64,000 bases of DNA, from positions 1,024,001 to 1,088,000 of the forward strand of contig CBDBKE010000004.1 of NCBI GenBank assembly GCA_965206645.1, given 5' to 3'. The position numbers were made by a program, and so were the translations under genes. The stretch is from Terriglobia bacterium. GTDB lineage: Bacteria; Acidobacteriota; Terriglobia; JAJPHL01; JAPKYU01. Below, piece by piece: positions 5,980 to 25,102 of this stretch. The notes under the pieces are model-generated. The model was not told the DNA's origin and did no database searches. It saw only the letters and a list, made by a program, of their open reading frames with translations. Position 1 is the stretch's first letter. Each line of letters opens with the position of its first letter.

Positions 5980-7065
5980 TTACCGGCTCAACCCAACCTC
6001 GCGTTGGAGCTTCTGCGCGTGTTGTTCCGTGGATTGCTTCGGCGTCTGGCTGATCTGAGGCCCGCGAGCATGAGAATATTGGTGGCTCAACTCCGCCGCC
6101 GTCTTCTCCTTGACCGGCGCTTCGCGCTCGTGCTCGACCGCACGATCCATCAGGTAATCGGTCATTCGCTGCGCGTCCCGCGCCGCTCTATGAATCTCGT
6201 GCGGGTCTTTTTCGAGCACCGCAACCCAATTCTCGATATAGGCCGCGCCGCGCTGCGGGTCATGCCCCACGCCCACGCGCTCCCCCGTCATCATGGCGCT
6301 GATCTCGGCCCGCAATTCCTCGCGGGCGTACTCCGGTGATCCAAAGCCCTTATCCAGCCCGTCCTTGAGCGTGTCGCGGTTCATGCGATCCGGGTGGCCG
6401 GTCGAGTGGCCGCATTCATGCAGCGCCGTCTGGTAGTAGCCGTTGCGCGTCGGGAATTGGGACGGCTCCGGGAGCACCACCTTGTCCTCGGCGATCCGAT
6501 AGTAGGCCCGATCTCCGGGGACGTGCTCGACCCTCGGCCCGCTGGCCTCAATCACCTTCTCCGCATCGCGGTGGGCGTCCCATTCAGGCCGCGCCTGTGC
6601 CGAGCGCGGCTTCAACTCCAATCCATCGGCCTGCTCGACGTTGAACACGGTGTACTGCTTACAAATCGGCTTTCCACGCTGCTCTTCTTCGTAGATCGTC
6701 TTCCCGTCCTTGTCCTTGAGCACCTTGCCCTGCTCGTCCTTTGCGGTTCGTGCCGTCCGATCCGTGAAAAACAAGACCTGCGTCCCTTTCTCGCCTTTGC
6801 GAACCTGCCCGCCCGCTTCTTGGATCTGGGTGTAGGTACCCCAACGGTTGTCGCCCCGTCCATCGCGGATACCCCGGCTCATCAGGTAGAGGCTGTTGCC
6901 GCCCGTGTAGGATTTGCCGGTCGAGAAGTTTTCCGGGCTGCTCTGCTCCCCCGGCTTCCACGGCTTCTGCCATGGCGCCACTCCCGCCTTGATTTGTTCG
7001 ATGAGTTCCTCGCTGACTTTCTCGGCGTAGTCTTCCCCGCGCTGCCAAAAGGATTTTTTAGCCAT
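5980..7065 (-). CDS. ardC: ArdC-like ssDNA-binding antirestriction protein with zincin metallopeptidase domain
   Basis: PWQKPW, YTGGN, WGTYTQ..GGQVRKGEKG, VFNVEQ, HECGHSTGH, YAREELRAE. Confidence 0.9.
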   Translation of the reverse strand: MAKKSFWQRGEDYAEKVSEELIEQIKAGVAPWQKPWKPGEQSSPENFSTGKSYTGGNSLYLMSRGIRDGRGDNRWGTYTQIQEAGGQVRKGEKGTQVLFFTDRTARTAKDEQGKVLKDKDGKTIYEEEQRGKPICKQYTVFNVEQADGLELKPRSAQARPEWDAHRDAEKVIEASGPRVEHVPGDRAYYRIAEDKVVLPEPSQFPTRNGYYQTALHECGHSTGHPDRMNRDTLKDGLDKGFGSPEYAREELRAEISAMMTGERVGVGHDPQRGAAYIENWVAVLEKDPHEIHRAARDAQRMTDYLMDRAVEHEREAPVKEKTAAELSHQYSHARGPQISQTPKQSTEQHAQKLQREVGLSR

Positions 7066-7255
7066 CGGGTGCCCCCGTTTCAATTCGCTCTTCAAACTTC
7101 GCCCGATGCTCGATCATCCGCCCAAAACCTCCGTCCCTCGGTTTCCACGGCTTCTGCCAGGGCGCATCGCCACGCTTGATCTGCTCCATGGCTTCCGCCG
7201 CAACTTTCTTCGCAGGGCCTCTCCCAGGCTGACCGGCGCTAGTCATGGGGATCAC
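7058..7255 (-). CDS. short ORF duplicating the ArdC N-terminus
   Basis: EAMEQIKRGDAPWQKPWKP parallels ELIEQIKAGVAPWQKPWKP in ardC. Confidence 0.45.
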   Translation of the reverse strand: MIPMTSAGQPGRGPAKKVAAEAMEQIKRGDAPWQKPWKPRDGGFGRMIEHRAKFEERIETGAPDG

Positions 7256-7433
7256 TCCGCGCCGCGTCGATCTCTTCCACGGTGCCCACGTCCTCGTTCA
7301 TAGGCACTCCGATCTGCTCCGCCAGTTCCCGCGTCAGTTCAACCGCGAGCCCTCGATTCAGCGCCTCGTGAAATTCAGCCTCGGTTGTGGCCGTGGCGTA
7401 CTTCTCGCCGTTCTCGTCCTTTTTGGGAATCAT
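7239..7433 (-). CDS. small acidic hypothetical protein
   Basis: 64 aa, GAGAGGGAG RBS-like sequence upstream, co-oriented with ardC. Confidence 0.5.
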   Translation of the reverse strand: MIPKKDENGEKYATATTEAEFHEALNRGLAVELTRELAEQIGVPMNEDVGTVEEIDAARSDPHD

Positions 7434-7454
7434 GGTTTCTCCCTCTCTTGGTTG

Positions 7455-7922
7455 CTAACGCCCATCAAGAAGTGAAGGCCGCTTGAGGGGCGCAGACCCC
7501 CAGGTGCGGCCGCAGATGATGCAGGCGGGTTCAAATTTGGCGCTCTCGGCATATCGAGCCTCCCCGGAGACGCTTCCCGATCCGTTTTCGGACCGGGAAG
7601 GCTCCGCTGCCACGATGCTGTCCGAATCGAAGTTCGCGGGGGAAGTATGATCCGTCACGCGGCGGCGCCAGCGTTCCCGGTAGGCCCGTTGCCGGTCGCG
7701 GTGATCGAGCCGTCCCTCCCGGCTTTGCTGGTGCCGCCGGTTGGCGGCTCTCAGTTGTTGCCGCCGTGCTTTCCGCCGGCATCGGTCGCTGCAGTATCGG
7801 TGGCCCCGGTCACAATGACGGCAGATCCAGAACACCGCGCCACAGCCGACACTCCGGCAAAACCGTTGGCGCAGGGGCTCTTCGCGGGTCCCCATCGCCG
7901 CCCTTCCGGCGGGACTGGCCAA
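7455..7922 (-). CDS. Cys-rich putative zinc-binding hypothetical protein
   Basis: CRSVGC..CRHCDRGHRYCSDRC, Arg-rich helix, CIICG. Confidence 0.55.
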   Translation of the reverse strand: MASPAGRAAMGTREEPLRQRFCRSVGCGAVFWICRHCDRGHRYCSDRCRRKARRQQLRAANRRHQQSREGRLDHRDRQRAYRERWRRRVTDHTSPANFDSDSIVAAEPSRSENGSGSVSGEARYAESAKFEPACIICGRTWGSAPLKRPSLLDGR

Positions 7923-8109
7923 CCGCGACTCGGCTTGGCAGGCGGGATCTTATCTACGGAGGACGTTCGGTTGTTTTTCGGGTCGGCACAAAAAACCCGA
8001 TCGCTGCTAACGGTCGGGGTTTTCCCTTTCCGCCTTCGGCCAAATCACGCGCCAGACCGCGTATCCCTCGCCTAGCGGCGGCTGTCACTCGCTTTGCCTT
8101 AGCTGGTCC

Positions 8110-8394
8110 TTGCCAGGCATCGCGAACGGGACGCACGACGCGATCTTAGGCGTGGCTATCTCAGCGACCCCGATCCTCCTGGTGCTCTGGATCATCAATC
8201 GGATGCGTCACCGGGAGCGGAGCTTCCAGAGCGCGGTCGGGGTCTCCCTCTTGGAATTCGTCCTTGTGCCTTCCGTATCGGCGGGCGCTGCTTTTCTTGG
8301 GGTTCGATCCGGCGGGGAATTCAATCAGGCGCTCGGTGTGGGTGTCGTTCTCTACATCCTCGGTTCTTGGATGTTTCGCCGGTGGATCATGTAG
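8110..8394 (+). CDS. small membrane protein
   Basis: three hydrophobic segments; start uncertain. Confidence 0.4.
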   Translation: MPGIANGTHDAILGVAISATPILLVLWIINRMRHRERSFQSAVGVSLLEFVLVPSVSAGAAFLGVRSGGEFNQALGVGVVLYILGSWMFRRWIM

Positions 8395-8678
8395 AGCGTA
8401 TAGGGGCCGTTGACGCGCTTGTACTCTTTCCGGTGGCCGGGGTTGGTGCGGGGCAGGCTGCACAGCGCCATCATTCGCGCCATGAAGCCTGGATCGGGGT
8501 CCGCTTCGCCGGCGCTGACAAGCTGGTTTACTTGATCGGCCACGGTGAAAGAGTGCCGCGCCTGGGGCGTGGCTTCGCGGATCGCCTTCACCGGCCCGTC
8601 AGGCCGGAGAGAACTTCGGCGGCGAGAAGCAATCCTTGTTTGCTCTGCATGCCCTATTCTCCCATGCCCCTCAGACAA
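8385..8678 (-). pseudogene. repA: N-terminal remnant of plasmid RepA (pSa/IncW-like RepA family)
   Basis: ADQVNQLV..EADPDPGFMARMMALCSLPRTNPG..YKRVNGPYTLYM, closely matching the 27796 copy, then truncated. Confidence 0.75.
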
Positions 8679-8698
8679 GACAGGGACACTACCGGCGT

Positions 8699-11600
8699 CT
8701 ATTCCTGATCCGGCATCTCCGGGACCGGCACCACCGGAAGCGTCGTGAAGATGCGCGTGCCGGGGTCCATTTCCAGGGCCACGGCGGTAAACAGATCCCC
8801 CCCTGGAGCACTGCAGCGCACCGACCCTGCGAAGTCGGACGTATCGGCGCCGGGGAACGCCTGGTCGATGAGCCAGGCCGTCTGCCCGTTGGCCTCCAGA
8901 GGGATGCTCGCGCCGTCGAGCAGCACACCCTCTCGCATCAAATCGCAGTGCACCAACCCCGCACTCGATTCCAGGTTGTGGAGCGCGACCCCCGTCGTGA
9001 TTCCTCCCTCCTGGCGGCGCACCGGGAAGAGGACGTCGCTGACGGGCGGGCTGGCTCCCACCCCGGCCACCCCGATCTCTGGGACGCCATAGCGCACGCC
9101 GCCGCCGATGGGACCGTCCGAGAGGACCTTCACCGATCCCGACACCAGCTCGCCTTGCCCGTGGGTTGAAATCGTGAGTTCCCCCAGCGGCTCCATCTCC
9201 GTCCGGACGGTCAGGCCTCCGTCCTCGGTGACCTCCAGATCGACCGTCACGTCCACCACCGATGCGGGGTCAATGAGACGGCCCCCTCGATCGTAAAAGT
9301 AGATTGCGGGCCGGATCGGATGGGAGGACACATTCACGAGCACCATCTCGGAGGTGATGCCGGTCCCATTGGCGAAATGCGCGAAGTCCAGGGCAAACAC
9401 TTCCGGCGCTTCCGGCGTGGCCTCGGCTTGGTTGGAAGCCCGGCCCCTGCCGATCCGGTTCACCGCCCGCACCTCGAAGACGTAGGCCGTGCCGTTGACG
9501 AGACCGGTGACCGTATCGGTGGTGTCGGTGGAGCCGATGGATATCCAGCGTCCCTTCCCGTCGATGCGGTACTCGTAATCCCTGATCTCAGAGCCGCCGT
9601 CGTCTTCGGGCGGGTCCCAGGACAGCTTCACCTGCCCGTCTCCACCCTCCGCCAGCAGATTCCTGGGCGCGGACGGCACCGTTTGGCGTGGGCCACCGCC
9701 GCCACCTCCGCCGGTTGACGGAGATGGCGTGGCTTCGAGCGTCACCACAGCACCACTGCCCAGGGCGTTGACCGCCCGCACCCGGAACATGTAGGTCTGG
9801 CCGTTGTTCAGGCCGGTCACCGTGTGGCTGGTGGCCGTCCCGCCCGTGGAGATCCAGATCTCGGACCCGTCCAGCTCGTATTCGTAGTGCGTGACCTCCG
9901 CGCCGCCGGATGGCTGGACCCAACTGAGCATCACCTGCCGGTTGCCGGGCGTGGCGTCGAGGCTGTGCGGCACGTCTGGCGCCCCCAGCGCGCCGGTCTG
10001 CCCCGAACCGGGCAGCGACCAGGGGCTGTCGCCTTCGGCGTTGGTCGCCAGCACCTGCACCTGGTAGGAGGTGCTCTCGGTCAGGCCCGAGATCGTCGCG
10101 CTGGTGCCGCTCACGTTCTGGGGGCCGTTGGTCCAGCTCCCGCTGGTGCCTTCCCGGTACTGCAGGTCGTAGTTGTCGATGGCGGGACCGGTGTTCGACG
10201 GTGTCGTCCAGTTCACCGACAGGCTGGTGGTGTTGCCGTCGACCGACGACACCGAGGGGGCCGCAGGCCGGCCCGGCGGCTCCTCCACGTCGGTGACCGT
10301 GATGGTCACCGCGAGGGTGTCGCTGCCGCCGTTGTCGTCCTCGGCCTTCAGCGTCACCGAGTAGCTCGGTTTCGTCTCGTGGTCGTAGGTGACGCCGGAC
10401 TCCGTCGAGAGCTGCCGGGTCGCCGGGTCGAAGCCGAACGATGCCGCGTCTGCGTCCTCCAGGGTGTAGGTCAGCGGGTCGTTGTCCGCATCCGTCGCCG
10501 CCGGCAGCGCCGTGCCGATGTTCGTGTTCGCCGCCGTGTTCTCGGGCACCTCGCGCGTGGCCGTGGGCGAGGAGAATTCCGGCGGCTCGTTGGCGGTGAT
10601 CGCGTTGGTGACTGGCTGAAGGACGACGGCATTGTTGGTGTTGCCGGCGAGGTCTGCCACAGCCAGCTGCGTTAAGGTGATGGTCAAGGTGCTGGTGAGG
10701 CTCACCACTCCGCTGTGGTCGACGGTGACCCGGCTCCCGCTGATGGTCGCCGCTGTGACTGCGCTGGTCACGTCCGATCCCGATGTGGTGACGGTGACGA
10801 GGAACTTGCTTGAATCCGCGCTTGCCAGTGCCTCGCTGAACGTCAGGATCACCTTCGTGCCGTCGGTCGACGTCGTCGGCGCATCGCTGCCCGTGGTGAC
10901 GAGCGTCGGGCGGATGCCGTCGACCTTGTGCCCGGCGTCGATCATGACCGCGATGTGGGTGAGGTCGGCGGTGGTGGTCGTGCTGCCGGTGGCGTAGATC
11001 GTGCCGCCGGTGAGCTTGTTCGCCGCGATCGCGACGCCGTTCGGGGCCGAGTCTCCCACCACCACCGTGTAGCTGCACGCCATCGTGGTCGTGTTCGTGC
11101 CGGTCGCGCAGGCGGCCGCTTTCGCGGTGCCGTTAAAGTCCAGCTCCAGCTGCGGCGTGCCGGTGATGTCGACCGCCTCGCTGAAGGTCACCGTCGCCTC
11201 GACCGCGTCGCCGATGCCGTAGGTGTTGAGGAGTCCGGGGTCGGAGGTCAGCGCGACCGACGTGACGGCCGGGGGGACCGGGGGGACCGGGGTGGAGTCG
11301 TCCGTGATCCTCAGCGCAATAGAGTCGCTCACGGACCAGCTGGGGACGTTGCTGTACCAAGAATAGGAATAGGTGCCCGCGCCATACGTTGCCTCACTGA
11401 AAGGGAATTGCTGGGTGCCAACAAGCAGCAATAGATTTGCAGCATCATCCCCGATCCCAACACCGTCGAGACTAAAAACCAGCACAGCTCCCGCGACAAC
11501 GGTTACGTTGTCAATTGTGTAGTTGGTTCCTTCATAGGTGAACGTCGTATCGGAAAGAGTGCCAAAACTACCTATGAATCCAACAGCACTCCCAGTAGCA

Positions 11601-12862
11601 GTCGCCACCGTCAGGGTGGCCGACCAGATCTCGGTGCCGGAGCCGGGCGTGGTGAAGCGAACGATGTCGACTGTGTAGGTTTTCGTGGTCGTTGTGTCGG
11701 GCGCGGTCACCTTCACCTTGACGATGTTGGTGCCCACGCTGAGGTTGACCTGGAGGCCGGCGGTCATGGTGTCGGCGTCCGTCAGGGTGTTGTCCGACCC
11801 GTCGAGATACTCAACCGTCGCCGTCGACTCGCTTTTCGTCTCGGTGATCGTGACCTGGCTCACCGCATTCGCCACCACCACCCCGTAATCTGTCGTGGCC
11901 GCGTCGAACGCCGGGCTGAGCGTCGCGCCGCTCACCGACAGGGCGCTCAACGTCGCGTCGGTGGTGTCGACCGTGACCGCATAGCCATTGACGATGATGC
12001 GGAGCGCCTCGTTGGCCCCGGACTTAACCGTCCAGGTGCCGCTGTTGTTCCAGTAGAACGTGTCTTTGATGCTCCAGTCCGAGAGGCCGAGCGCCGCATC
12101 TTCTCCGCTGGAGGTGGTGGAGTTGAGCTCCACGCTCCCGGTGCCGCGCTGCTTGATCACCACCACATAGTTGGTGTTCGCCGAGAGGGCGAGGCCGGTG
12201 TGGTCGAAAAACAGGAGCCCGGCCGCGAAGCTGGCCGGCGCCGTCAGGGCCGTGCAGTCGGAGGCGGTGGTGGAGGGAAACTCGTTCGCGGTGCCATCCT
12301 CCTCGCAGATCTCGACGTCGAAGTCGTCGCCCTCGGCGTCCTCGGAGCTGACGTGCATGCTGGTGAGGATGTAGCCGGCCGTGTTGCCACCCGTGTGGAA
12401 CAGCTGCGCATGGTCGTTGCCACTGGTGCTGGCGCTGTCATCGGCCATTTGCGCTTGGTTGCTCACGAGGACGCGCGGCGTCTGCGCCTCCGCCGGGGCC
12501 GCCCCGAGGAGCGCCAGACCCAAGACGAGGACGGTGGCGGCGGCGCGGCCTGGACGGGCGGGCCGACGGGACCGGTCTCGATCCCGCGCCCCGGCGGGCG
12601 CGGCGGAACAGTCAGACGGGAGGCTGGACCCCCCTCCGCTCATCCAGCGCATGGACCGCCCCGACGGCCCTGATGAGGGCGCGCGGCGCGCGCGGCGTTC
12701 CAGCGCGCCCGGGAGGCATGCCCCGACCACGCGCACGCGCCGGCGCGGCCACGCCCATGCCCGACGACACCACGCCGGGACCGCACCAACTCCCAGCCAC
12801 CGCGCGAGCACCGCCGTCAGCCAGCGACCGCCTCTCCTGCGACCGTTCCTGGGAAAACGCAC
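8699..12862 (-). CDS. giant multidomain surface protein/adhesin (cadherin-like beta-sandwich, Ig-like, cadherin, 3x FN3)
   Basis: Open frame of 1388 codons from GTG 12862, with GAGGAGG RBS 5 nt upstream; signal-like LVLGLALLGAAPAEAQ; DATLSALSVS..LSPAF; NEPPEF..VPEN..DADNDPLTY cadherin; three FN3 repeats; poly-Gly linker. Confidence 0.85.
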   Translation of the reverse strand: MRFPRNGRRRGGRWLTAVLARWLGVGAVPAWCRRAWAWPRRRVRVVGACLPGALERRARRAPSSGPSGRSMRWMSGGGSSLPSDCSAAPAGARDRDRSRRPARPGRAAATVLVLGLALLGAAPAEAQTPRVLVSNQAQMADDSASTSGNDHAQLFHTGGNTAGYILTSMHVSSEDAEGDDFDVEICEEDGTANEFPSTTASDCTALTAPASFAAGLLFFDHTGLALSANTNYVVVIKQRGTGSVELNSTTSSGEDAALGLSDWSIKDTFYWNNSGTWTVKSGANEALRIIVNGYAVTVDTTDATLSALSVSGATLSPAFDAATTDYGVVVANAVSQVTITETKSESTATVEYLDGSDNTLTDADTMTAGLQVNLSVGTNIVKVKVTAPDTTTTKTYTVDIVRFTTPGSGTEIWSATLTVATATGSAVGFIGSFGTLSDTTFTYEGTNYTIDNVTVVAGAVLVFSLDGVGIGDDAANLLLLVGTQQFPFSEATYGAGTYSYSWYSNVPSWSVSDSIALRITDDSTPVPPVPPAVTSVALTSDPGLLNTYGIGDAVEATVTFSEAVDITGTPQLELDFNGTAKAAACATGTNTTTMACSYTVVVGDSAPNGVAIAANKLTGGTIYATGSTTTTADLTHIAVMIDAGHKVDGIRPTLVTTGSDAPTTSTDGTKVILTFSEALASADSSKFLVTVTTSGSDVTSAVTAATISGSRVTVDHSGVVSLTSTLTITLTQLAVADLAGNTNNAVVLQPVTNAITANEPPEFSSPTATREVPENTAANTNIGTALPAATDADNDPLTYTLEDADAASFGFDPATRQLSTESGVTYDHETKPSYSVTLKAEDDNGGSDTLAVTITVTDVEEPPGRPAAPSVSSVDGNTTSLSVNWTTPSNTGPAIDNYDLQYREGTSGSWTNGPQNVSGTSATISGLTESTSYQVQVLATNAEGDSPWSLPGSGQTGALGAPDVPHSLDATPGNRQVMLSWVQPSGGAEVTHYEYELDGSEIWISTGGTATSHTVTGLNNGQTYMFRVRAVNALGSGAVVTLEATPSPSTGGGGGGGPRQTVPSAPRNLLAEGGDGQVKLSWDPPEDDGGSEIRDYEYRIDGKGRWISIGSTDTTDTVTGLVNGTAYVFEVRAVNRIGRGRASNQAEATPEAPEVFALDFAHFANGTGITSEMVLVNVSSHPIRPAIYFYDRGGRLIDPASVVDVTVDLEVTEDGGLTVRTEMEPLGELTISTHGQGELVSGSVKVLSDGPIGGGVRYGVPEIGVAGVGASPPVSDVLFPVRRQEGGITTGVALHNLESSAGLVHCDLMREGVLLDGASIPLEANGQTAWLIDQAFPGADTSDFAGSVRCSAPGGDLFTAVALEMDPGTRIFTTLPVVPVPEMPDQE

Positions 12863-12875
12863 CGTCACCTCCTCG

Positions 12876-12911
12876 TTTTGCTCGCGATAACTGGAATTAT
12901 CGCGAGTAAAA
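12876..12911 (+). other. loxP-like recombination site A
   Basis: TTTTGCTCGCGATAA-ctggaa-TTATCGCGAGTAAAA: 15-bp inverted arms (1 mismatch) around an asymmetric spacer. Confidence 0.85.
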
Positions 12912-12948
12912 ATGAGCGGTCTTTTTCGACGGAACGGGAGGCCGCCCG

Positions 12949-13932
12949 ATGCTGATTGCCGAGACGCCATGCGATGTCGAGCGTGTGACCGGCGTGGCAC
13001 ACGCCGCGGAGGTGGGGGACTCCCTGGCCGCTTACTTCGACGCGGCCCGGGGGGCGTTCAGCCACAACACCGAACGCGCGCTGAGAGCCGACGTGGAGAT
13101 ATTCGCAGCCTGGTGCCGACAACATCTCCGGGCGGCGTTGCCCGCCAGCGTCCCTACCGTGGTCGCGTTCATCGACGACATGGCGCGCGTCAAGACTCCG
13201 GCGACGGTGCGCCGCTACGTGTCCAGCATCGCCACCGTGCACAAGGCGCTACGGCAAACGAGTCCCCTGGAGAGCGCCCCCGCGCGGTTCGCCCTGCAAC
13301 GGATGCACCGGCGCCGGGGGCGTCGGCAGGCGCAAGTCCAGGGGCTGACCTGGCCGATGCGAAACCGACTGCTGGAGGCGGCCGGAGACCGGTTGATCGA
13401 CGCCCGGAACCGCGCGCTCCTGGCGATGGGCTACGACACGCTGCTGCGGCGCTCCGAGCTGGTTTCGCTGGACGTGTCTGATGTACTGGAGGAAATCGAC
13501 GGAACGGCGACGCTGCTCGTGCGCTCAGGCAAGACCGACGCGGAGGGGCGAGGCGCGACGCTCTACCTGGCGCGCGACACCGTGCAGCTCGTCAAGACGT
13601 GGCTCGAACGGGGCGGCGTCGACGGAGGGCGGGTGTTCCGCTCCGTGCGCAAGGATCGCACGGTCGGCGAGCAGCTCGACGCGAGCCAGGTGCCGCGCAT
13701 CTACAAGCGGATGGCGCGACACGCCGGGCTTCCCGACGACATCGTCGACGCGCTGGCCGGGCACAGCACGCGCGTCGGGCCGGTGCAGGACATGATCGCC
13801 TGTGGCATCGAGTTGCCGGCCATCCTGCAGTCGGGTCGGTGGAAGACGACGCGCATGGTCCACCGCTACGGGGAACGGTTGCTGGCGCGGCGCAGCGGCG
13901 CCGCCCAGCTGGCCGAGCGGCAGCAGCGCTGA
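12949..13932 (+). CDS. Cre-like tyrosine recombinase
   Basis: N-terminal SAM-like domain; LLRRSEL (R), RSGKTD (K), GHSTRVG (HxxR), SGRW (W as in Cre), HRY (Y); GGGAGG RBS. Confidence 0.9.
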   Translation: MLIAETPCDVERVTGVAHAAEVGDSLAAYFDAARGAFSHNTERALRADVEIFAAWCRQHLRAALPASVPTVVAFIDDMARVKTPATVRRYVSSIATVHKALRQTSPLESAPARFALQRMHRRRGRRQAQVQGLTWPMRNRLLEAAGDRLIDARNRALLAMGYDTLLRRSELVSLDVSDVLEEIDGTATLLVRSGKTDAEGRGATLYLARDTVQLVKTWLERGGVDGGRVFRSVRKDRTVGEQLDASQVPRIYKRMARHAGLPDDIVDALAGHSTRVGPVQDMIACGIELPAILQSGRWKTTRMVHRYGERLLARRSGAAQLAERQQR

Positions 13933-14035
13933 ACAGGCCCCACTCTGGAGGCGACGGGTCGTGACGCTGGCGCGCACGTCAGGGGTAGAGGTTCGCCCGC
14001 GCCGTCCCCAGCGGCGCCCTCACATCTCTGGGACG

Positions 14036-14050
14036 TTATCGCGAGCAAAA
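14036..14050 (+). promoter_or_regulatory. isolated recombinase-binding half site
   Basis: TTATCGCGAGCAAAA is the exact reverse complement of the left arm of site A. Confidence 0.7.
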
Positions 14051-14173
14051 ACTCGACATTGTTGCTACATGTCCCGCGATGGGCGCGGCGCACTCCGCCG
14101 GTTGTTCCGTCGGCAGACGCAACCCTGTTCCGACAGAACCGCCGTGATTTCAGCGGTTTATTACTGAAAGTGA

Positions 14174-14203
14174 TGGCGAATGCGGGTCACGGTGTGATAT
14201 GCT
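14174..14203 (+). promoter_or_regulatory. candidate sigma70 promoter (extended -10) pointing at site B
   Basis: TGGCGA, 18 nt, TATGCT, with TG one base upstream of the -10 (14195-14203). Confidence 0.4.
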
Positions 14204-14233
14204 CGCGCCGTACCGACCTGGCGCGGAACCGAT

Positions 14234-14269
14234 TTTTGTGCGCGATAATTCCAGTTATCGCGAGTAAAA
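14234..14269 (-). other. loxP-like recombination site B, inverted relative to site A
   Basis: TTTTGTGCGCGATAA-ttccag-TTATCGCGAGTAAAA; spacer is the reverse complement of site A spacer ctggaa. Confidence 0.85.
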
Positions 14270-14716
14270 TGCCTTGATGTGATCGCGTTTCCCGACGCTT
14301 CAGGTCACAGCATGTCAGCGCCAACCGGTGCTCCCTATTTCCCCGTCGTGGCGGCCTCCCGTCGTTGATCACGATGGTGGCCTCGCCGCCATCGGTGAGG
14401 CGCCCGTCGCCGCCGGTGACTCGCCCCACCCGTCGACCATCGAGATCCCTCGTGACGTCGCGCCCGTGGCGCGCATCGCGCGACCGGCCTCTGCGCTGAC
14501 CCAGCAGGCACGCCGTCGCAGCGCCCTCCGCGGGTGGGCGGCAGATGCCATCCCTGCCGTTCATCACGTGGAGGCCATGCTACCGACGCGCCGGGAGGAT
14601 GGGTATACGAGAACATCGCGGGTGGTTATGAGGGGGAACACCCCATGGTGTTGGCCGTTCCGTTCGCCGGTCCTGTGCCCGGTCTCGGGAGCCCGCCGCG
14701 GCGCCGGCGCCCCCGC

Positions 14717-15750
14717 TCAGCGGATCGACAGCAGGTGCGCGCGCAGGGTCACGCGCCGCTCCACGCCGAGCTTGGCGCGGATGTTGTGGCGGTGAAAGTC
14801 GATCGTGCTCGGCGCCCGCGACAGCGTGGCGGCGATGTCCTTCGTGGTCAGGCCGCGCATCACCAGATGCGCGACGTCGGCTTCGGTCGCGGTCAAGGCC
14901 TGGAACACGCGCGCCATCCTCGATGACAGCGACGAGGTGAGGGTCGTGAGGTTGGTCTCGATCAGGCTCACGTACTCCACGGCCGCGCTGTCGCGCTCCA
15001 CGAGCCGCGCGAGCTTCGCCACATGCGGCATCACCAGCGTATGGATCTGTTGCAGCAGCTGCTCGTTGCGCGCCTCGTGGGACTTCTCGACATTGCCGAG
15101 CAGCACGCGCAGCGCCGTGTTGGCGTCCTGCAGTTCGCTGGTGCGTTCGACCACCTGCCGTGCGGTCTGGTCGAGCGAGTGCTGCAGGGCGGTTTCGAGC
15201 CGGCGGCGTTCGGCGATCTCGACCAGCGACCGCAGGTTCGCCTCGACCACGCCGGCGAACGCCTGCAGCCCCTCGCGGAACAGCAGCGCGTGGTCGTTGC
15301 GCTCGCGGTCGAGCACGCAGATCGTGCCGAACACCTCGCCGCTGGGCCATTTCAGGGGATAGCCGATGTAGAAGCGCATCCCGTCGGCCAGATCCTCGTT
15401 GGCCGCCCAGACCGGGTCGCGGGTCGCGTCCTCGACCACCAGCTCGCCGTCGTTGTCGAACACGCCCTGGCAATAGAGCAATGCGTTCAGATCGTACTCG
15501 CGCCCGACATCGTAGGGGTTGCCCTCGGTGCGGCTACTCACCAGGACCGTGTGCTTCGGACGCTCGGTGCGCATGATCAGGCTCGCCGGCACCCGGGCGA
15601 GCCGTGCCGTCAGGTCGACCACGCGCTGCCACTCGGCCAGCGTCTCGGACGGGATCGCGGGCAGCACGGTCGTCACGGCCGCAGTTCCGATGACCACCGC
15701 CGCCGGGCCGGACCCGATCGGGGACGGGGACTCCTCGCTAACGGCATACG
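14717..15750 (-). CDS. GAF-domain / LuxR-HTH transcriptional regulator (start uncertain)
   Basis: GAF (LVVEDATRDP..FYIGYPL..GEVFGTICVLD), coiled coil, C-terminal LTATEADVAHLV.RGLTTKDIA..TIDFHRHNIRAKLG. Confidence 0.8.
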
Positions 15751-15909
15751 CACTCGTGCCTCGGCCTGGACAACGGGGGATGCCATGCCGTCGCACGATC
15801 GAGGGGCATCCGGGAAGAATACCTGAATCGATATGGGGCACTGCCCCATATTGTTCGGGACGTGGCGGCGGCCTTTCGCGGGGGCCGGGCACCGCTCGGC
15901 CGGGGCCCA

Positions 15910-16187
15910 CGGGTCGGGCAGTTGCTGCAGGCGCGGCACACGTTCGTCGATGGGATGGTAGACCTCGAGGTACTCTCGTTCCAGGTTTCGCGGCGCTGTC
16001 CCCGGTAGTAGAGCCCGGCGAAGAGCACCCGGAGGTCGTCCTTCGGGCCTTCGCCGACCAGGAGTGCATTGCTCGTCAGGCCGCAGGCCTCGTCAATCAG
16101 GGCCGTGGTGGTCGGCCAGTGAACATCGTCGAGCATGGCTTCGTGCAACGATGTCAGGATGCGCTTGAATGCGTCGTGGCCACTCAT
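15910..16187 (-). pseudogene. N-terminal remnant of LuxR-family HTH regulator
   Basis: AFKRILTSLHEAMLDDVHWP..LIDEACG, then frameshift and truncation. Confidence 0.55.
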
Positions 16188-16352
16188 GGCGATGTCTTCC
16201 TTCAGTCATAAGAATGTCAACTGACCGCCGCGGAGCCGAGCCGACATCGATCTGGAGTCCAGAGAGTGGAGCGTTGCGGTGGAATGGATGGAGCACACGC
16301 GGGAGTACCGGGTGCCGGGACTGATCAACTCCAAGCCAGAGGAGAAGGCCGA

Positions 16353-17060
16353 ATGATCAATCAGCCGGAGGAACGCCCGCTATCTATCGGGTCTGCCGTA
16401 CAGTTCACTCACAAGGGGAAAACAATCCACGGACATCTCTTCCAAAGGCAGGGCCGACGCCGCTTCGCGAAGGTCGTCGACACCGCAGAGCGGACCTGGA
16501 ACGTCCCCGAGTCAATGTTAAAGCCCTCGGGAGGAGCGCGACGAGCCACGATCATCACGCGGCACGACAACGCACGCGCTGACTACCGCGTGGGGGACAA
16601 GGTGACGTTCACAAGTCCCGACGGACCAAGGCGTGGCGAGATCGTGAAGTTCAACCCGAAGAGCGCCAAGGTACGCTGCGAAGAGACAGGCTGGAACGTC
16701 TCCTATGGCTTACTCCACAGGGCGGGAAAGGAAAGCGCGAGGAACGGTGCGGAGAGGCTGAACGGCGTCGCGGGAATGGCGAGGCGGTTGATGGACGAGC
16801 AGGGGCTCACGGGCTGGACGCTCGCGTTCGGCGAGGCCAGGAAACGCCTTGGCGCCTGTCATTTCCGACACCACGTGATCTGGATCAGCCGCACCCATGC
16901 CCTGGAGGGAAGCGAGGAGCAGATCCGGGACACCGTGCTACACGAGATCGCACACGCGATCGCGGGACACGAGGCTGGCCATGGACCGCTGTGGAAGGCA
17001 ACAGCACGGCGAATCGGGGCAACACCGAGGGCGAAGACCTATGAGAGCCAAACGAGCTAA
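16353..17060 (+). CDS. SprT-like zinc metalloprotease with two N-terminal SH3/KOW-like repeats
   Basis: RLGAC, DTVLHEIAHA, GHGPLWK..ARRIG. Confidence 0.8.
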   Translation: MINQPEERPLSIGSAVQFTHKGKTIHGHLFQRQGRRRFAKVVDTAERTWNVPESMLKPSGGARRATIITRHDNARADYRVGDKVTFTSPDGPRRGEIVKFNPKSAKVRCEETGWNVSYGLLHRAGKESARNGAERLNGVAGMARRLMDEQGLTGWTLAFGEARKRLGACHFRHHVIWISRTHALEGSEEQIRDTVLHEIAHAIAGHEAGHGPLWKATARRIGATPRAKTYESQTS

Positions 17061-20883: not shown

Positions 20884-22133
20884 TGACCTGACCGGCACTT
20901 TTTGTACCAAGTGGAAAGAGAGAGAATCCACTTGAGAAGGAAGTGAGGTCATGCCGACAAGGAGTTACAAGCCGGAGCAGATTGTAGCGGTGCTACGGCA
21001 GATAGAAGTGCAGATGGGGAACGGGAAGACTGCGCCCCAAGCCTGCAAAGAAGCTGGAATCCACACCCAAACCTACTACCGGTGGCGGAAGGAATACGGC
21101 GGGCTGAAGGTGGTGCAGGCAAAACGGCTAAAGGAGTTGGAGAAGGAAAACACGCGGCTGAAGCGGTTGGTAGCGGAGCTTTCTCTGGAGAAGCAGGTGC
21201 TGCGGGATGTGGCACAGGGAAACTTCTGAGCCCTGAGCGGCGGCGTTGTGCGGTGGAGCGTGCGTGGGAGCAACACGGGTTGTCGGAACGGCATGCCTGC
21301 CGGCTGCTGGGGCAATGGCGAGGGACACAACGATACGAGCCGATTCATCGGGTGGACGAGGATGCTCTGACCCGAGCGATCATTGCCCTGGGAGCGAACT
21401 ACGGGCGATATGGCTACCGGAGGATCACAGCGTTGCTGCGGAGTGCGGGCTGGGAAGTGGGCAAGGACCGGGTGCAGCGGATTTGGCGGCGGGAAGGGCT
21501 GAAAGTGCCGCAAAAACAAAGGCCGCGAGGACGGCTGTGGCTGAACGACGGTTCCTGTGTACGACTGAGGCCGGAGCGACCGAACCACGTGTGGAGCTAC
21601 GACTTCATGAGTGCCAGAACGCACGAGGGGAGAACGCTGCGGCTGCTGACCTTGCTGGATGAGTACACGCGGGAATGCCTGGCGATCCGGGTGGAGCGGA
21701 GGATGGGCAGCCAACAAATCATTGAGGCGTTGTCGGACGTGATGTTGTGGCGAGGGATACCGGAACAGATTCGATCCGACAATGGTCCCGAGTTCATCGC
21801 CAAACAACTGCGCCAGTGGTTGGCAAATCTAGGGACCGGGACACTGTACATCGAACCGGGCAGTCCCTGGGAGAACGGGTACTGCGAGAGTTTCAATGGG
21901 AAGCTGCGGGACGAATGCCTGAATGGAGAGATCTTCTACTCGTTGAAGGAGGCACAGGTGCTGATTGAACAGTGGAGGGTGCAATACAACACGGTGCGGC
22001 CGCACTCGGCGCTCGGCTATAGGCCCCCGGCGCCGGGGGCCTATAGCCCTCCCCTGCCACTGAAACCAGTTTCACAGCCCCAGGCTGCGATGTAAACTCT
22101 CACTACGGTTGGTACAAAAAATCGGTCTGGTCA
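20884..22133 (+). mobile_element. IS3-family IS, copy 1 (1250 bp)
   Basis: IRs TGACCTGACCGGCACTTTTTGTACCA / TGGTACAAAAAATCGGTCTGGTCA; orfA 20951-21229, orfB to 22095 via -1 frameshift at GGGAAAC. Confidence 0.95.
20951..22095 (+). CDS. IS3 transposase OrfAB (programmed frameshift)
   Basis: HTH OrfA; WSYDF, RSDNGPEF, ENGYCESFNGKLRDE. Confidence 0.93.
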
Positions 22134-23734: not shown

Positions 23735-25102
23735 TGTCCATTGCGAATTGATATGTTGAGCGATTCTACCCGTGGCCGCTGCCCCAGTGAGGCGAGTGCA
23801 CACTGGCGGAGTACCCTCGGTAGCAGCGAAACAATCAGATCAGACAACCGCTCCGCGTTGACAAGCTCAAACAGCGAATGGTTTCGTAGGAAGTGCCCGC
23901 CTGCCGATGTCCGCCGGTTACACAGGGAGCACCAGTCTTTGGAGAATCAGGCAGTCATTGGGGTGTGATAGAGGCCTCTGCAGTGGCGTTGCCATCCATA
24001 GGAATGGAGCCTGGCGACTGGTCGTGGTATAGGCGTGACTGGATCAGGCGTTCTCCCCTCCAGTCCAGTGTGCGAGCGATACGCATTGAAATATGTCCTG
24101 AAATCGAGCAGCTTGTTCTCCAGGTCCGCCGGCGTCCAGAACAACGTGCGGTCCAAATACTCGCGTCGAATCGTGCCGATCAACCGTTCCACAAAGGGAT
24201 GGGACAGGGGAACATAGGGGACGGTTTTGATTTCGATTACCTCCAGGATCCGCAGATTGGCTTGCCACTGCCCAAACCGATACAGGGGATCATGGTCGGA
24301 GCTGAGGTAGTTGGGCATACAGGGTTGCCATCGAATGGCGCAGTTGAACATGCGGCAAAGTGCCACGCCATTGACGGTTCCGGCGTGGACGCCGAACCCA
24401 ATGATCCGGCGGGTGTATTGATCCATGACGACCAAGACCCAGCGGGTCCGCAACGTGGCCGATTCGCACCGGAACAGATCTATACTCCAGAGGCTGTCCT
24501 TCATGTGGCCAATGAAGGTCAGCCAGGATGGACCACCGGAGTCCTTTTTCGGCCGATAGTGGCTGGCGAGAATCCTTCGAACAACGTCTTTGTCGATGGG
24601 GATGTCGAAAGCCAAGGCAATCTGCTGAGCGATTCGCGGGCAGCCGCAGGTGGGATTGCGCTGCTTCATCTGGACAACAGCGTCGATGAGTTCTTTGTTG
24701 GGTCCGTTTGGTCCGGGCTTACGCCGGTGCTTGGATGAAAAGAGCAGGCAATATTTTCGGTTCCTCAGAGCCCGGTGAAGGCCCAAAAGAGTCGAAGGCT
24801 TCAGCACGATTGCTGAACGGATCAGGCGGGCGGGGCGGATGAGGAGAGCACACAGGCCGGCGGCGAGGCGATCTGAAGTGCGTAGATTGGGAGATCGCTG
24901 TCGCGAACGATTGAGGATCAGGAGTTGTTGCTTGGCGAGAACGGACTCGGCGATCACAGAGCGAATGCCACCCGGACCCAAGAACCGGGTAAGAGTAGCC
25001 ATGACATGGACTGAAAGGATAACGAGATTGCGCATCTCAGCATCTTAGCAAGAACCGCTAAACCCAGGAATTAGGCCGTAAACTAGCAATTCGCCAGGGA
25101 CA
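23735..25102 (-). mobile_element. IS481-like element
   Basis: TGT..ACA ends, TGTCCATTGCGAATTG vs TGTCCCTGGCGAATTG (14/16); one rve transposase. Confidence 0.7.
23947..25035 (-). CDS. integrase-core (rve) transposase
   Basis: WSIDLF, LSSDHD, FVERLIGTIRREYLD. Confidence 0.85.
   Translation of the reverse strand: MRNLVILSVHVMATLTRFLGPGGIRSVIAESVLAKQQLLILNRSRQRSPNLRTSDRLAAGLCALLIRPARLIRSAIVLKPSTLLGLHRALRNRKYCLLFSSKHRRKPGPNGPNKELIDAVVQMKQRNPTCGCPRIAQQIALAFDIPIDKDVVRRILASHYRPKKDSGGPSWLTFIGHMKDSLWSIDLFRCESATLRTRWVLVVMDQYTRRIIGFGVHAGTVNGVALCRMFNCAIRWQPCMPNYLSSDHDPLYRFGQWQANLRILEVIEIKTVPYVPLSHPFVERLIGTIRREYLDRTLFWTPADLENKLLDFRTYFNAYRSHTGLEGRTPDPVTPIPRPVARLHSYGWQRHCRGLYHTPMTA

Follow-up and report, generated by a model that had tools for sequence, protein, structure and literature searches.

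Cre, which serves the resolution of plasmid and phage dimers, is a tyrosine recombinase, and tyrosine recombinases acting on an inverted pair of sites produce inversion, not excision. The fim switch is known for its strong orientation bias; there the recombinase genes lie outside the switch and the repeats are short. Hin/hix of Salmonella and the Gin and Cin invertases work with serine recombinases, which need an enhancer and Fis. The length of the fim switch is given as 314 bp in 10.1101/2022.09.20.508701, and PMC10250229 describes a search for the target site of Cre-type enzymes within 1 kb of the recombinase gene and in phage-like contexts. Here we describe a segment of 1,394 bp (12876-14269) in a contig of a Terriglobia bacterium, bounded by two lox-like sites, A and B, which enclose a tyrosine recombinase gene; all positions are those of the whole 64-kb stretch of DNA that was analysed, hereafter the window, unless another contig is named. 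As a complete model we lean towards a self-flipping phase-variation cassette of the Cre type, and we rate recombination between A and B, as read from their sequences, higher than this full switch model.

The recombinase and its two inverted sites

The central features of the segment are the following.

12876-12911, no strand: site A, a 36-bp lox-like palindrome (15-6-15) with spacer CTGGAA, on the side of the recombinase start
14234-14269, no strand: site B, a 36-bp lox-like palindrome (15-6-15) with spacer TTCCAG
12949-13932, + strand: recombinase gene, 327 amino acids (aa), stop codon included in the coordinates; match to PF00589 with E 1e-15
12936-12941, + strand: Shine-Dalgarno sequence GGGAGG of the recombinase, 7 nt 5' of the ATG and kept in the left-end alignment

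Site A reads TTTTGCTCGCGATAA-CTGGAA-TTATCGCGAGTAAAA and site B reads TTTTGTGCGCGATAA-TTCCAG-TTATCGCGAGTAAAA, the spacers being exact reverse complements, so that the sites are mutually inverted; the arms of the inverted pair extend over 38 nt with 89% complementarity. This site pair is genuine and well beyond chance: five copies of the arm motif are present in the window where 0.16 would be expected, a number that none of 100 shuffles attained. The fifth copy is a lone half-site inside the segment (14036-14050), which is missing from an earlier site list that had A and B right. Apart from this, the segment holds a single open reading frame (ORF) with a family match and about 300 nt of non-coding DNA (13933-14233). 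The initial annotation had described A and B as 36-bp palindromes with reverse-complement spacers that bracket only a tyrosine recombinase and about 300 bp of non-coding DNA, and our analysis bears it out, the one family-matched ORF being 12949-13932 on the + strand.

Comparison with solved structures revealed Cre as the best relative of the recombinase in the PDB (E 1.2e-22, query residues 21-316), with an XerC-like protein (4.6e-3) and XerD (5.7e-3) far behind, and the scores against the NCBIfam XerC and XerD models fell well under their cut-offs. Only PF00589 and PF02899 were hit in the protein, and no serine recombinase domain was matched. Residues R167, K195, H272, R275, W298 and Y307 align to R173, K201, H289, R292, W315 and Y324 of Cre, which confirms in all six positions the R-K-H-R-W-Y set claimed earlier; the list of Cre-type catalytic residues is that quoted in PMC10250229. 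The protein and P1/P7 Cre are about 26% identical. Close homologues are very numerous, with clusters that have members on up to 18 contigs; of the 120 listed, nearly all have a length of exactly 327 aa (two have 326 and 335 aa), and they share 80-99% identity, a pattern that speaks for strong conservation of both length and sequence. Enzyme and site are both of the Cre type.

Related loci were collected to a total of 42, namely two in the own genome, 27 in species-representative genomes, two in a genome of the same genus (G007), six in three other genomes of the phylum and five on metagenome contigs; a sixth metagenome locus, a fragment, was excluded from this number. In 36 of the 42, both sites are found with exactly reverse-complementary spacers, one site lying 61-139 nt 5' of the matched gene start and the other 63-336 nt past the gene end, where the matched start is that of the tblastn or HMMER match and begins after residue 1 in some loci. 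L016 has one spacer mismatch between its sites. As for the remaining five, the sequence of L023 ends 148 nt past the gene, the left site of L024 is a variant form, and at the thresholds used only the left site was detected in L029 and L040 and no site in L045 (54% identity). Ten spacers occur, all of them asymmetric: CTGGAA, CTGGAT, CGGGAT, CTGCCT, CTGGCT, CTGTAA, CTGTAG, CTAGAG, TTGTAG and TTGCAG. The arms covary too, as two gammaproteobacterial loci carry CGGGAG instead of CGCGAG. Matched changes of this kind in spacer and arm are expected if A and B recombine together or are homogenised thereby, and this covariation strongly suggests that A and B recombine with each other. The matched spacers further point to selection for A x B recombination, and asymmetric spacers in an always-inverted pair argue for inversion rather than excision.

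Genes and signals around the cassette

The DNA beyond site A differs between loci, and a large gene that reads outward lies there in at least 33 of the 42. All 11 site-A-side genes scanned with Pfam carry adhesin-type repeats (fn3, cadherin, cadherin-like, Calx-beta, LRR, Big_12, SWM, LapA), and in L025 and L026 the gene encodes a lipoprotein with a classic signal peptide. At the window locus the cassette is surrounded by the following features.

8699-12652, - strand: large adhesin-type surface-protein gene with fn3, cadherin and cadherin-like domains, counted from its probable ATG
12860-12874, - strand: GAGGAGG (12868-12874) and the in-frame GTG at 12862, adjoining site A; the start proposed earlier, probably 5' leader
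14036-14050, + strand: internal half-site that consists of a single arm, TTATCGCGAGCAAAA; a candidate for an accessory binding site
14174-14179 and 14198-14203, + strand: candidate outward promoter TGGCGA-18-TATGCT, with TG one base 5' of the second hexamer, reading through site B
14270-14345, no strand: conserved stretch of about 75 nt just outside site B, common to loci with LuxR-type regulators; nine right flanks aligned
14717-16069, - strand: LuxR-family regulator gene (GerE helix-turn-helix), 450 aa, match to PF00196 with E 6.8e-12, reading toward the cassette

The large surface-protein gene reads away from the cassette, which lies at its 5' end, as had been noted from the start. Its translation start was placed by the initial annotation at the GTG 14 nt from site A, behind GAGGAGG. 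Both elements are present, but the composition, the signal peptide and the paralogue all speak against the GTG as start. Over the 120 nt that follow the GTG, the guanine plus cytosine (GC) fraction at codon positions 1/2/3 amounts to 0.70/0.75/0.70, compared with about 0.52-0.64/0.47-0.54/0.85-0.91 deeper in the adhesin. Counted from the GTG, the end of the sole signal-peptide-like stretch (...LVLGLALLGAAPAEA) comes after about 135 residues, and counted from an ATG at 12652 after about 56; a purine-rich stretch lies upstream of this ATG, and homology to a paralogous adhesin elsewhere in the genome is lost just downstream of it. Taken together, these features place the adhesin start probably at ATG 12652 and not at GTG 12862, and with it about 220 nt lie between site A and the start. 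The Cre-like enzyme, the lox-like inverted sites and the placement 5' of an adhesin, out of which a self-inverting phase-variation cassette had been proposed, are supported, while the position on the adhesin ribosome-binding site probably does not apply here. The related claim that no room is left for a promoter outside the segment probably fails at the window locus as well; it does hold in L019 and L021, as only 23-27 nt separate the site from a start codon that has a Shine-Dalgarno sequence and belongs to a normal signal peptide. Adding L025 and L026, starts with Shine-Dalgarno sequence and signal peptide lie 23-73 nt from the site, and over the loci the distance to a plausible start codon ranges from the 23-27 nt of L019 and L021 up to several hundred.

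The interval 12672-12875 is 100% identical in G007, next to a coding part that is about 7% diverged, and by this pattern it looks like a conserved leader. A part of it, TTTTCCAGGAACGGTC, recurs in L011 and L017 beside another adhesin. The 3' part of the adhesin with the genes downstream (6000-9274) has paralogues of 91-95% identity at no fewer than three other places in the genome (C4:515355-519791, C4:57969-59959 and C3:24038-27871), one of them cut by an insertion sequence at C4:520901. In the C4:55991-56054 region, a paralogous adhesin has about nine GGCTCTC heptamers just upstream and no recombinase cassette; this tract may support slipped-strand phase variation there in place of the cassette.

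On the other side, the DNA beyond site B is conserved within subfamilies and often encodes a regulator. The right-flank gene of L041 was confirmed as a GerE gene, and ORFs of like size occupy the same place in L005, L007, L016, L017, L018 and L027. By size and position these six are probably LuxR-type genes reading inward, like those of the window locus and L041. An OmpR-type response regulator is found in L008 and a hybrid kinase-regulator reading outward in L043. Right flanks of other content carry a type I restriction-modification methylase, HsdM (L022:7426-9090), and a subtilase (L025:7978-10704). Two further candidates in this region were rejected. For an RNA element in the conserved 90 nt outside site B, the plus strand gave no structure and the minus strand 13 weak pairs with 2 compensatory changes; for a small minus-strand ORF across site B (TTG near 14327), the start is not kept in L005 and L016. 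A search of Rfam with 12400-15000 gave no match.

Turning to the non-coding end, the half-site motif aligns in 22 of 26 cassettes, is variant in L022 and is absent from L019-L021, whose non-coding regions are short. This conservation hints at a putative accessory site. The 26-cassette alignment also shows in the relatives a hexamer pair that points outward about 20-30 nt 5' of site B, as in L021 (TTGACG-17-TACAAT), L020 (TTGACG-17-TAGGAT) and L008 (TTGCGG-18-TAGAAT); L027 has its outward match, TTGCCT-17-TAGAAT, farther upstream of site B. Under a rule of at least 8 of 12 matching positions, with the second hexamer required to have A as its second and T as its sixth base, an outward sigma-70-like match falls in the last 110 nt before site B in 12 of the 26 cassettes and an inward one in 2, while shuffled windows (200 trials) gave a mean of 3.2 and a maximum of 8. 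A general promoter scan of 12500-14800 returned 0 sites. At the opposite end, 10 of 26 loci have a weak match within site A, GCGATA-17-TAAAAT, that is directed into the recombinase gene.

The proposed switch and other explanations

From the site architecture, the catalytic set, the spacer covariation and the placement described above, we infer a present-day inversion and a real promoter, combined as follows. The recombinase would bind the arms of A and B, and probably the internal half-site as well. Strand exchange in the 6-bp spacers, these being mutually inverted, would then flip the whole cassette, including the recombinase gene itself. By flipping, an outward promoter at the non-coding end would be joined either to the surface-protein gene or to the regulator side, and the outcome would be phase-variable expression of the surface protein.

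Several observations weigh against this model. Among the 42 loci no simple flip of the cassette was seen, and the start of the recombinase gene is turned towards the surface-protein gene in every locus whose orientation can be read. The sole exception to this rule is the second copy in the own genome, where an adhesin is lacking and both flanks are regulator regions. The six loci yielded by a metagenome scan all have the cassette the usual way round. From an unbiased Cre-like switch one would expect a mixture of orientations among assemblies, so that a constant orientation requires a strongly biased switch; the bias could come, for example, from orientation-dependent expression of the recombinase or from the accessory half-site. 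The promoter side is likewise a difficulty. The candidate of the window has its position and direction in common with the stronger matches of the relatives, yet it matches only 7 of 12 consensus positions and was missed by both scans, and in L043 and L044 site B lies just 63 nt past the stop codon, leaving scant space for a promoter. A further weak match, AAGACC-16-GATAAT, leads from the recombinase end toward the adhesin in 8 of 26 cassettes, including the window locus, and only in those with the CTGGAA spacer. With such weak promoter-like matches in several directions, either orientation could be the ON state, and the gap of about 220 nt before the adhesin start makes an independent promoter outside the cassette possible at the window locus.

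The check for inverted junctions in public data suggested by the initial annotation was carried out on Logan assembled contigs of four public runs, and among the joints listed there was no flipped junction at 12891-12896/14249-14254, in contigs of a kind that loses rare variants. Contigs of the four runs end inside sites A and B (12883-12903 and 14241-14256), breaks that the presence of two differently flanked cassette copies would also produce. A lone joint between opposite strands, 12913/13947, found in one run with 36 nt on one side, was rejected as a flip; it fits a variant cassette with a near-palindromic site after the stop codon.

The second cassette of the genome (C4:1172937-1174333) is 98.8% identical to that of the window and has the regulator region on both sides in mirror orientation, intact on the recombinase side (99.3% identical to window 14511-17004) and degraded on the other. 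Apart from one difference in the flank, the sequence on its recombinase side (flank, B-type outer arm and spacer) equals the reverse complement of the far side, and this mirror identity stops at the A-type inner arm. The end of the mirror duplication therefore coincides exactly with the place of strand exchange, which is the outcome expected of an A x B exchange. The surroundings (C4:1170140-1176228) consist of mirror LuxR regulator regions with no adhesin gene attached. The two cassettes of G007 are arranged in the usual way. There, however, the corresponding adhesin (93% identity over window 10831-12875) is joined to the degraded regulator flank and here to the intact one, which means that the cassettes have been the place of a flank exchange. 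This exchange could also have come from homologous recombination of the 1.4-kb repeats, and a comparison of single-nucleotide polymorphisms (SNPs) over the four cassettes of the own genome and G007, made to place the crossovers, gave an uninformative mosaic. Moreover, there are three copies of the regulator flank here and two in G007, and so the second copy is not derivable from G007 in a single step, a duplication being needed as well. The extra flank copy ends at an element of about 130 bp (C4 ~1169980-1170140) with 20-nt terminal inverted repeats beginning GGTACTGTCAAGTT. This element looks like a miniature transposable element, in a region dense in insertion sequences. An insertion sequence of 1.25 kb at window 20884-22133 has well over 100 copies of 98-100% identity over all four contigs, and a second short repeat, also with many copies, lies at 23735-24000.

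These rearrangements raise the question of whether the sites serve mainly for recombination between cassettes, large inversions re-pairing surface genes with regulator flanks. The adhesin that has changed flanks between G007 and the present genome would fit, as would the second cassette here, which has the degraded flank on one side and the intact one, inverted, on the other, with the junction exactly at the site. However, homologous recombination of 1.4-kb repeats that are 98-99% identical gives the same swaps, the SNP pattern does not discriminate, and with well over a hundred copies of one insertion sequence rearrangements are common anyway; such a role would also leave the matched A and B spacers unexplained where one copy per genome was recovered. 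We therefore regard it as quite unlikely. A different view takes the cassette as mainly a horizontally mobile, selfish element whose ends are the sites and which has settled by surface genes without regulating them. Its occurrence is indeed patchy (two of the order's 11 genomes and four among 401 genomes sampled across the phylum), members of the family with 64-88% protein identity are also found in metagenome-assembled genomes (MAGs) that carry the labels Gemmatimonadetes, Bryobacterales, Terriglobia and Gammaproteobacteria, there are several copies per genome, 98-99% identical within the own genome, and one paralogous adhesin locus here is free of the cassette. So rare and patchy an occurrence, together with the MAGs of other phyla, indicates horizontal spread of the module. 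Nevertheless, there are no target-site duplications (a flanking direct repeat of at least 3 nt in just 2 of 26 loci), inverted spacers give no excision by simple site-specific recombination, and placement and polarity relative to the surface-protein gene are constant. The right flank is conserved past site B in subfamilies, so that the conserved unit is larger than the element supposed. The initial annotation had considered palindromes that are mobile-element ends unrelated to the neighbouring gene; the homologues have instead consistently surface-protein genes as neighbours. An element of this mainly selfish kind is, in our opinion, unlikely.

It is also conceivable that recombination has been lost and that the palindromes act as operators, through which a recombinase-derived protein regulates itself or the neighbouring genes. 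That a single orientation is all that was ever observed agrees with such a role, and so does the promoter-like match within site A toward the recombinase gene (10 of 26), where binding could repress. All six catalytic residues are nevertheless retained, length and sequence are strongly conserved over the listed homologues, and operators have no need of exactly reverse-complementary spacers across ten variants; we consider this possibility very unlikely. The self-flipping cassette, which would need a strong bias, is the best reading of the locus.

Comparison with described systems

In the full-text literature searched, no description was found of a Cre-type recombinase whose gene lies between its own target site and an inverted copy of it, and Cre-type enzymes were met there just as phage or plasmid tools. 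It is possible, and we propose it tentatively, that the locus represents an undescribed phase-variation device: a horizontally shared Cre/lox flip cassette that carries recombinase, promoter and a direction-giving half-site, can be placed before any surface-protein gene, and provides genome engineering with a natural set of ten or more spacer variants, mutually exclusive and each with its matched enzyme. Provided that the cassette flips, a portable Cre/lox-like switch would govern large adhesin-type proteins with eukaryote-like repeats (fn3, cadherin, LRR, Calx-beta) in uncultured bacteria, both Acidobacteriota-like and from other environmental groups. An enzyme within its own substrate, an extra half-site and a one-sided orientation pose the question of how a symmetric Cre-like reaction becomes directional. 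The family would in addition be a collection of many natural enzyme/site pairs that differ in spacers and arms.

The closest cultured relatives are plasmid-borne proteins of Methylobacterium and Lichenicola, annotated as tyrosine-type recombinase/integrase, with 45-49% identity over more than 90% of the length. Their neighbours differ, being ParB-like, RHE_PE00001 family, IS66 and toxin-antitoxin genes, and they have one candidate palindromic site or none, with no inverted pair. With Cre/loxP of phage P1 and the other Cre-type systems described in PMC10250229, the cassette shares a near-full-length protein match, a catalytic set that has the Trp of Cre, and a site in which two inverted arms (13-15 bp) flank an asymmetric centre of 6-8 bp. 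The cassette differs in that it is chromosomal and not phage-borne, that two inverted sites enclose the gene and that an extra half-site is conserved, and its role here would be gene switching.

The fimS/FimB-FimE invertons resemble the locus in having a short segment with inverted repeats, an adjoining gene for a surface structure and, as proposed here, an internal promoter. In contrast to fim, the recombinase lies inside the 1.4-kb segment, the sites are full lox-like sites, the enzyme is Cre-type and not Fim/Xer-type, and only one orientation was observed in the loci examined. The arrangement itself is nearest to that of Hin, since the recombinase would ride within the inverted segment beside an outward promoter for a surface-protein gene; the enzyme of the cassette, however, matches PF00589 and Cre.

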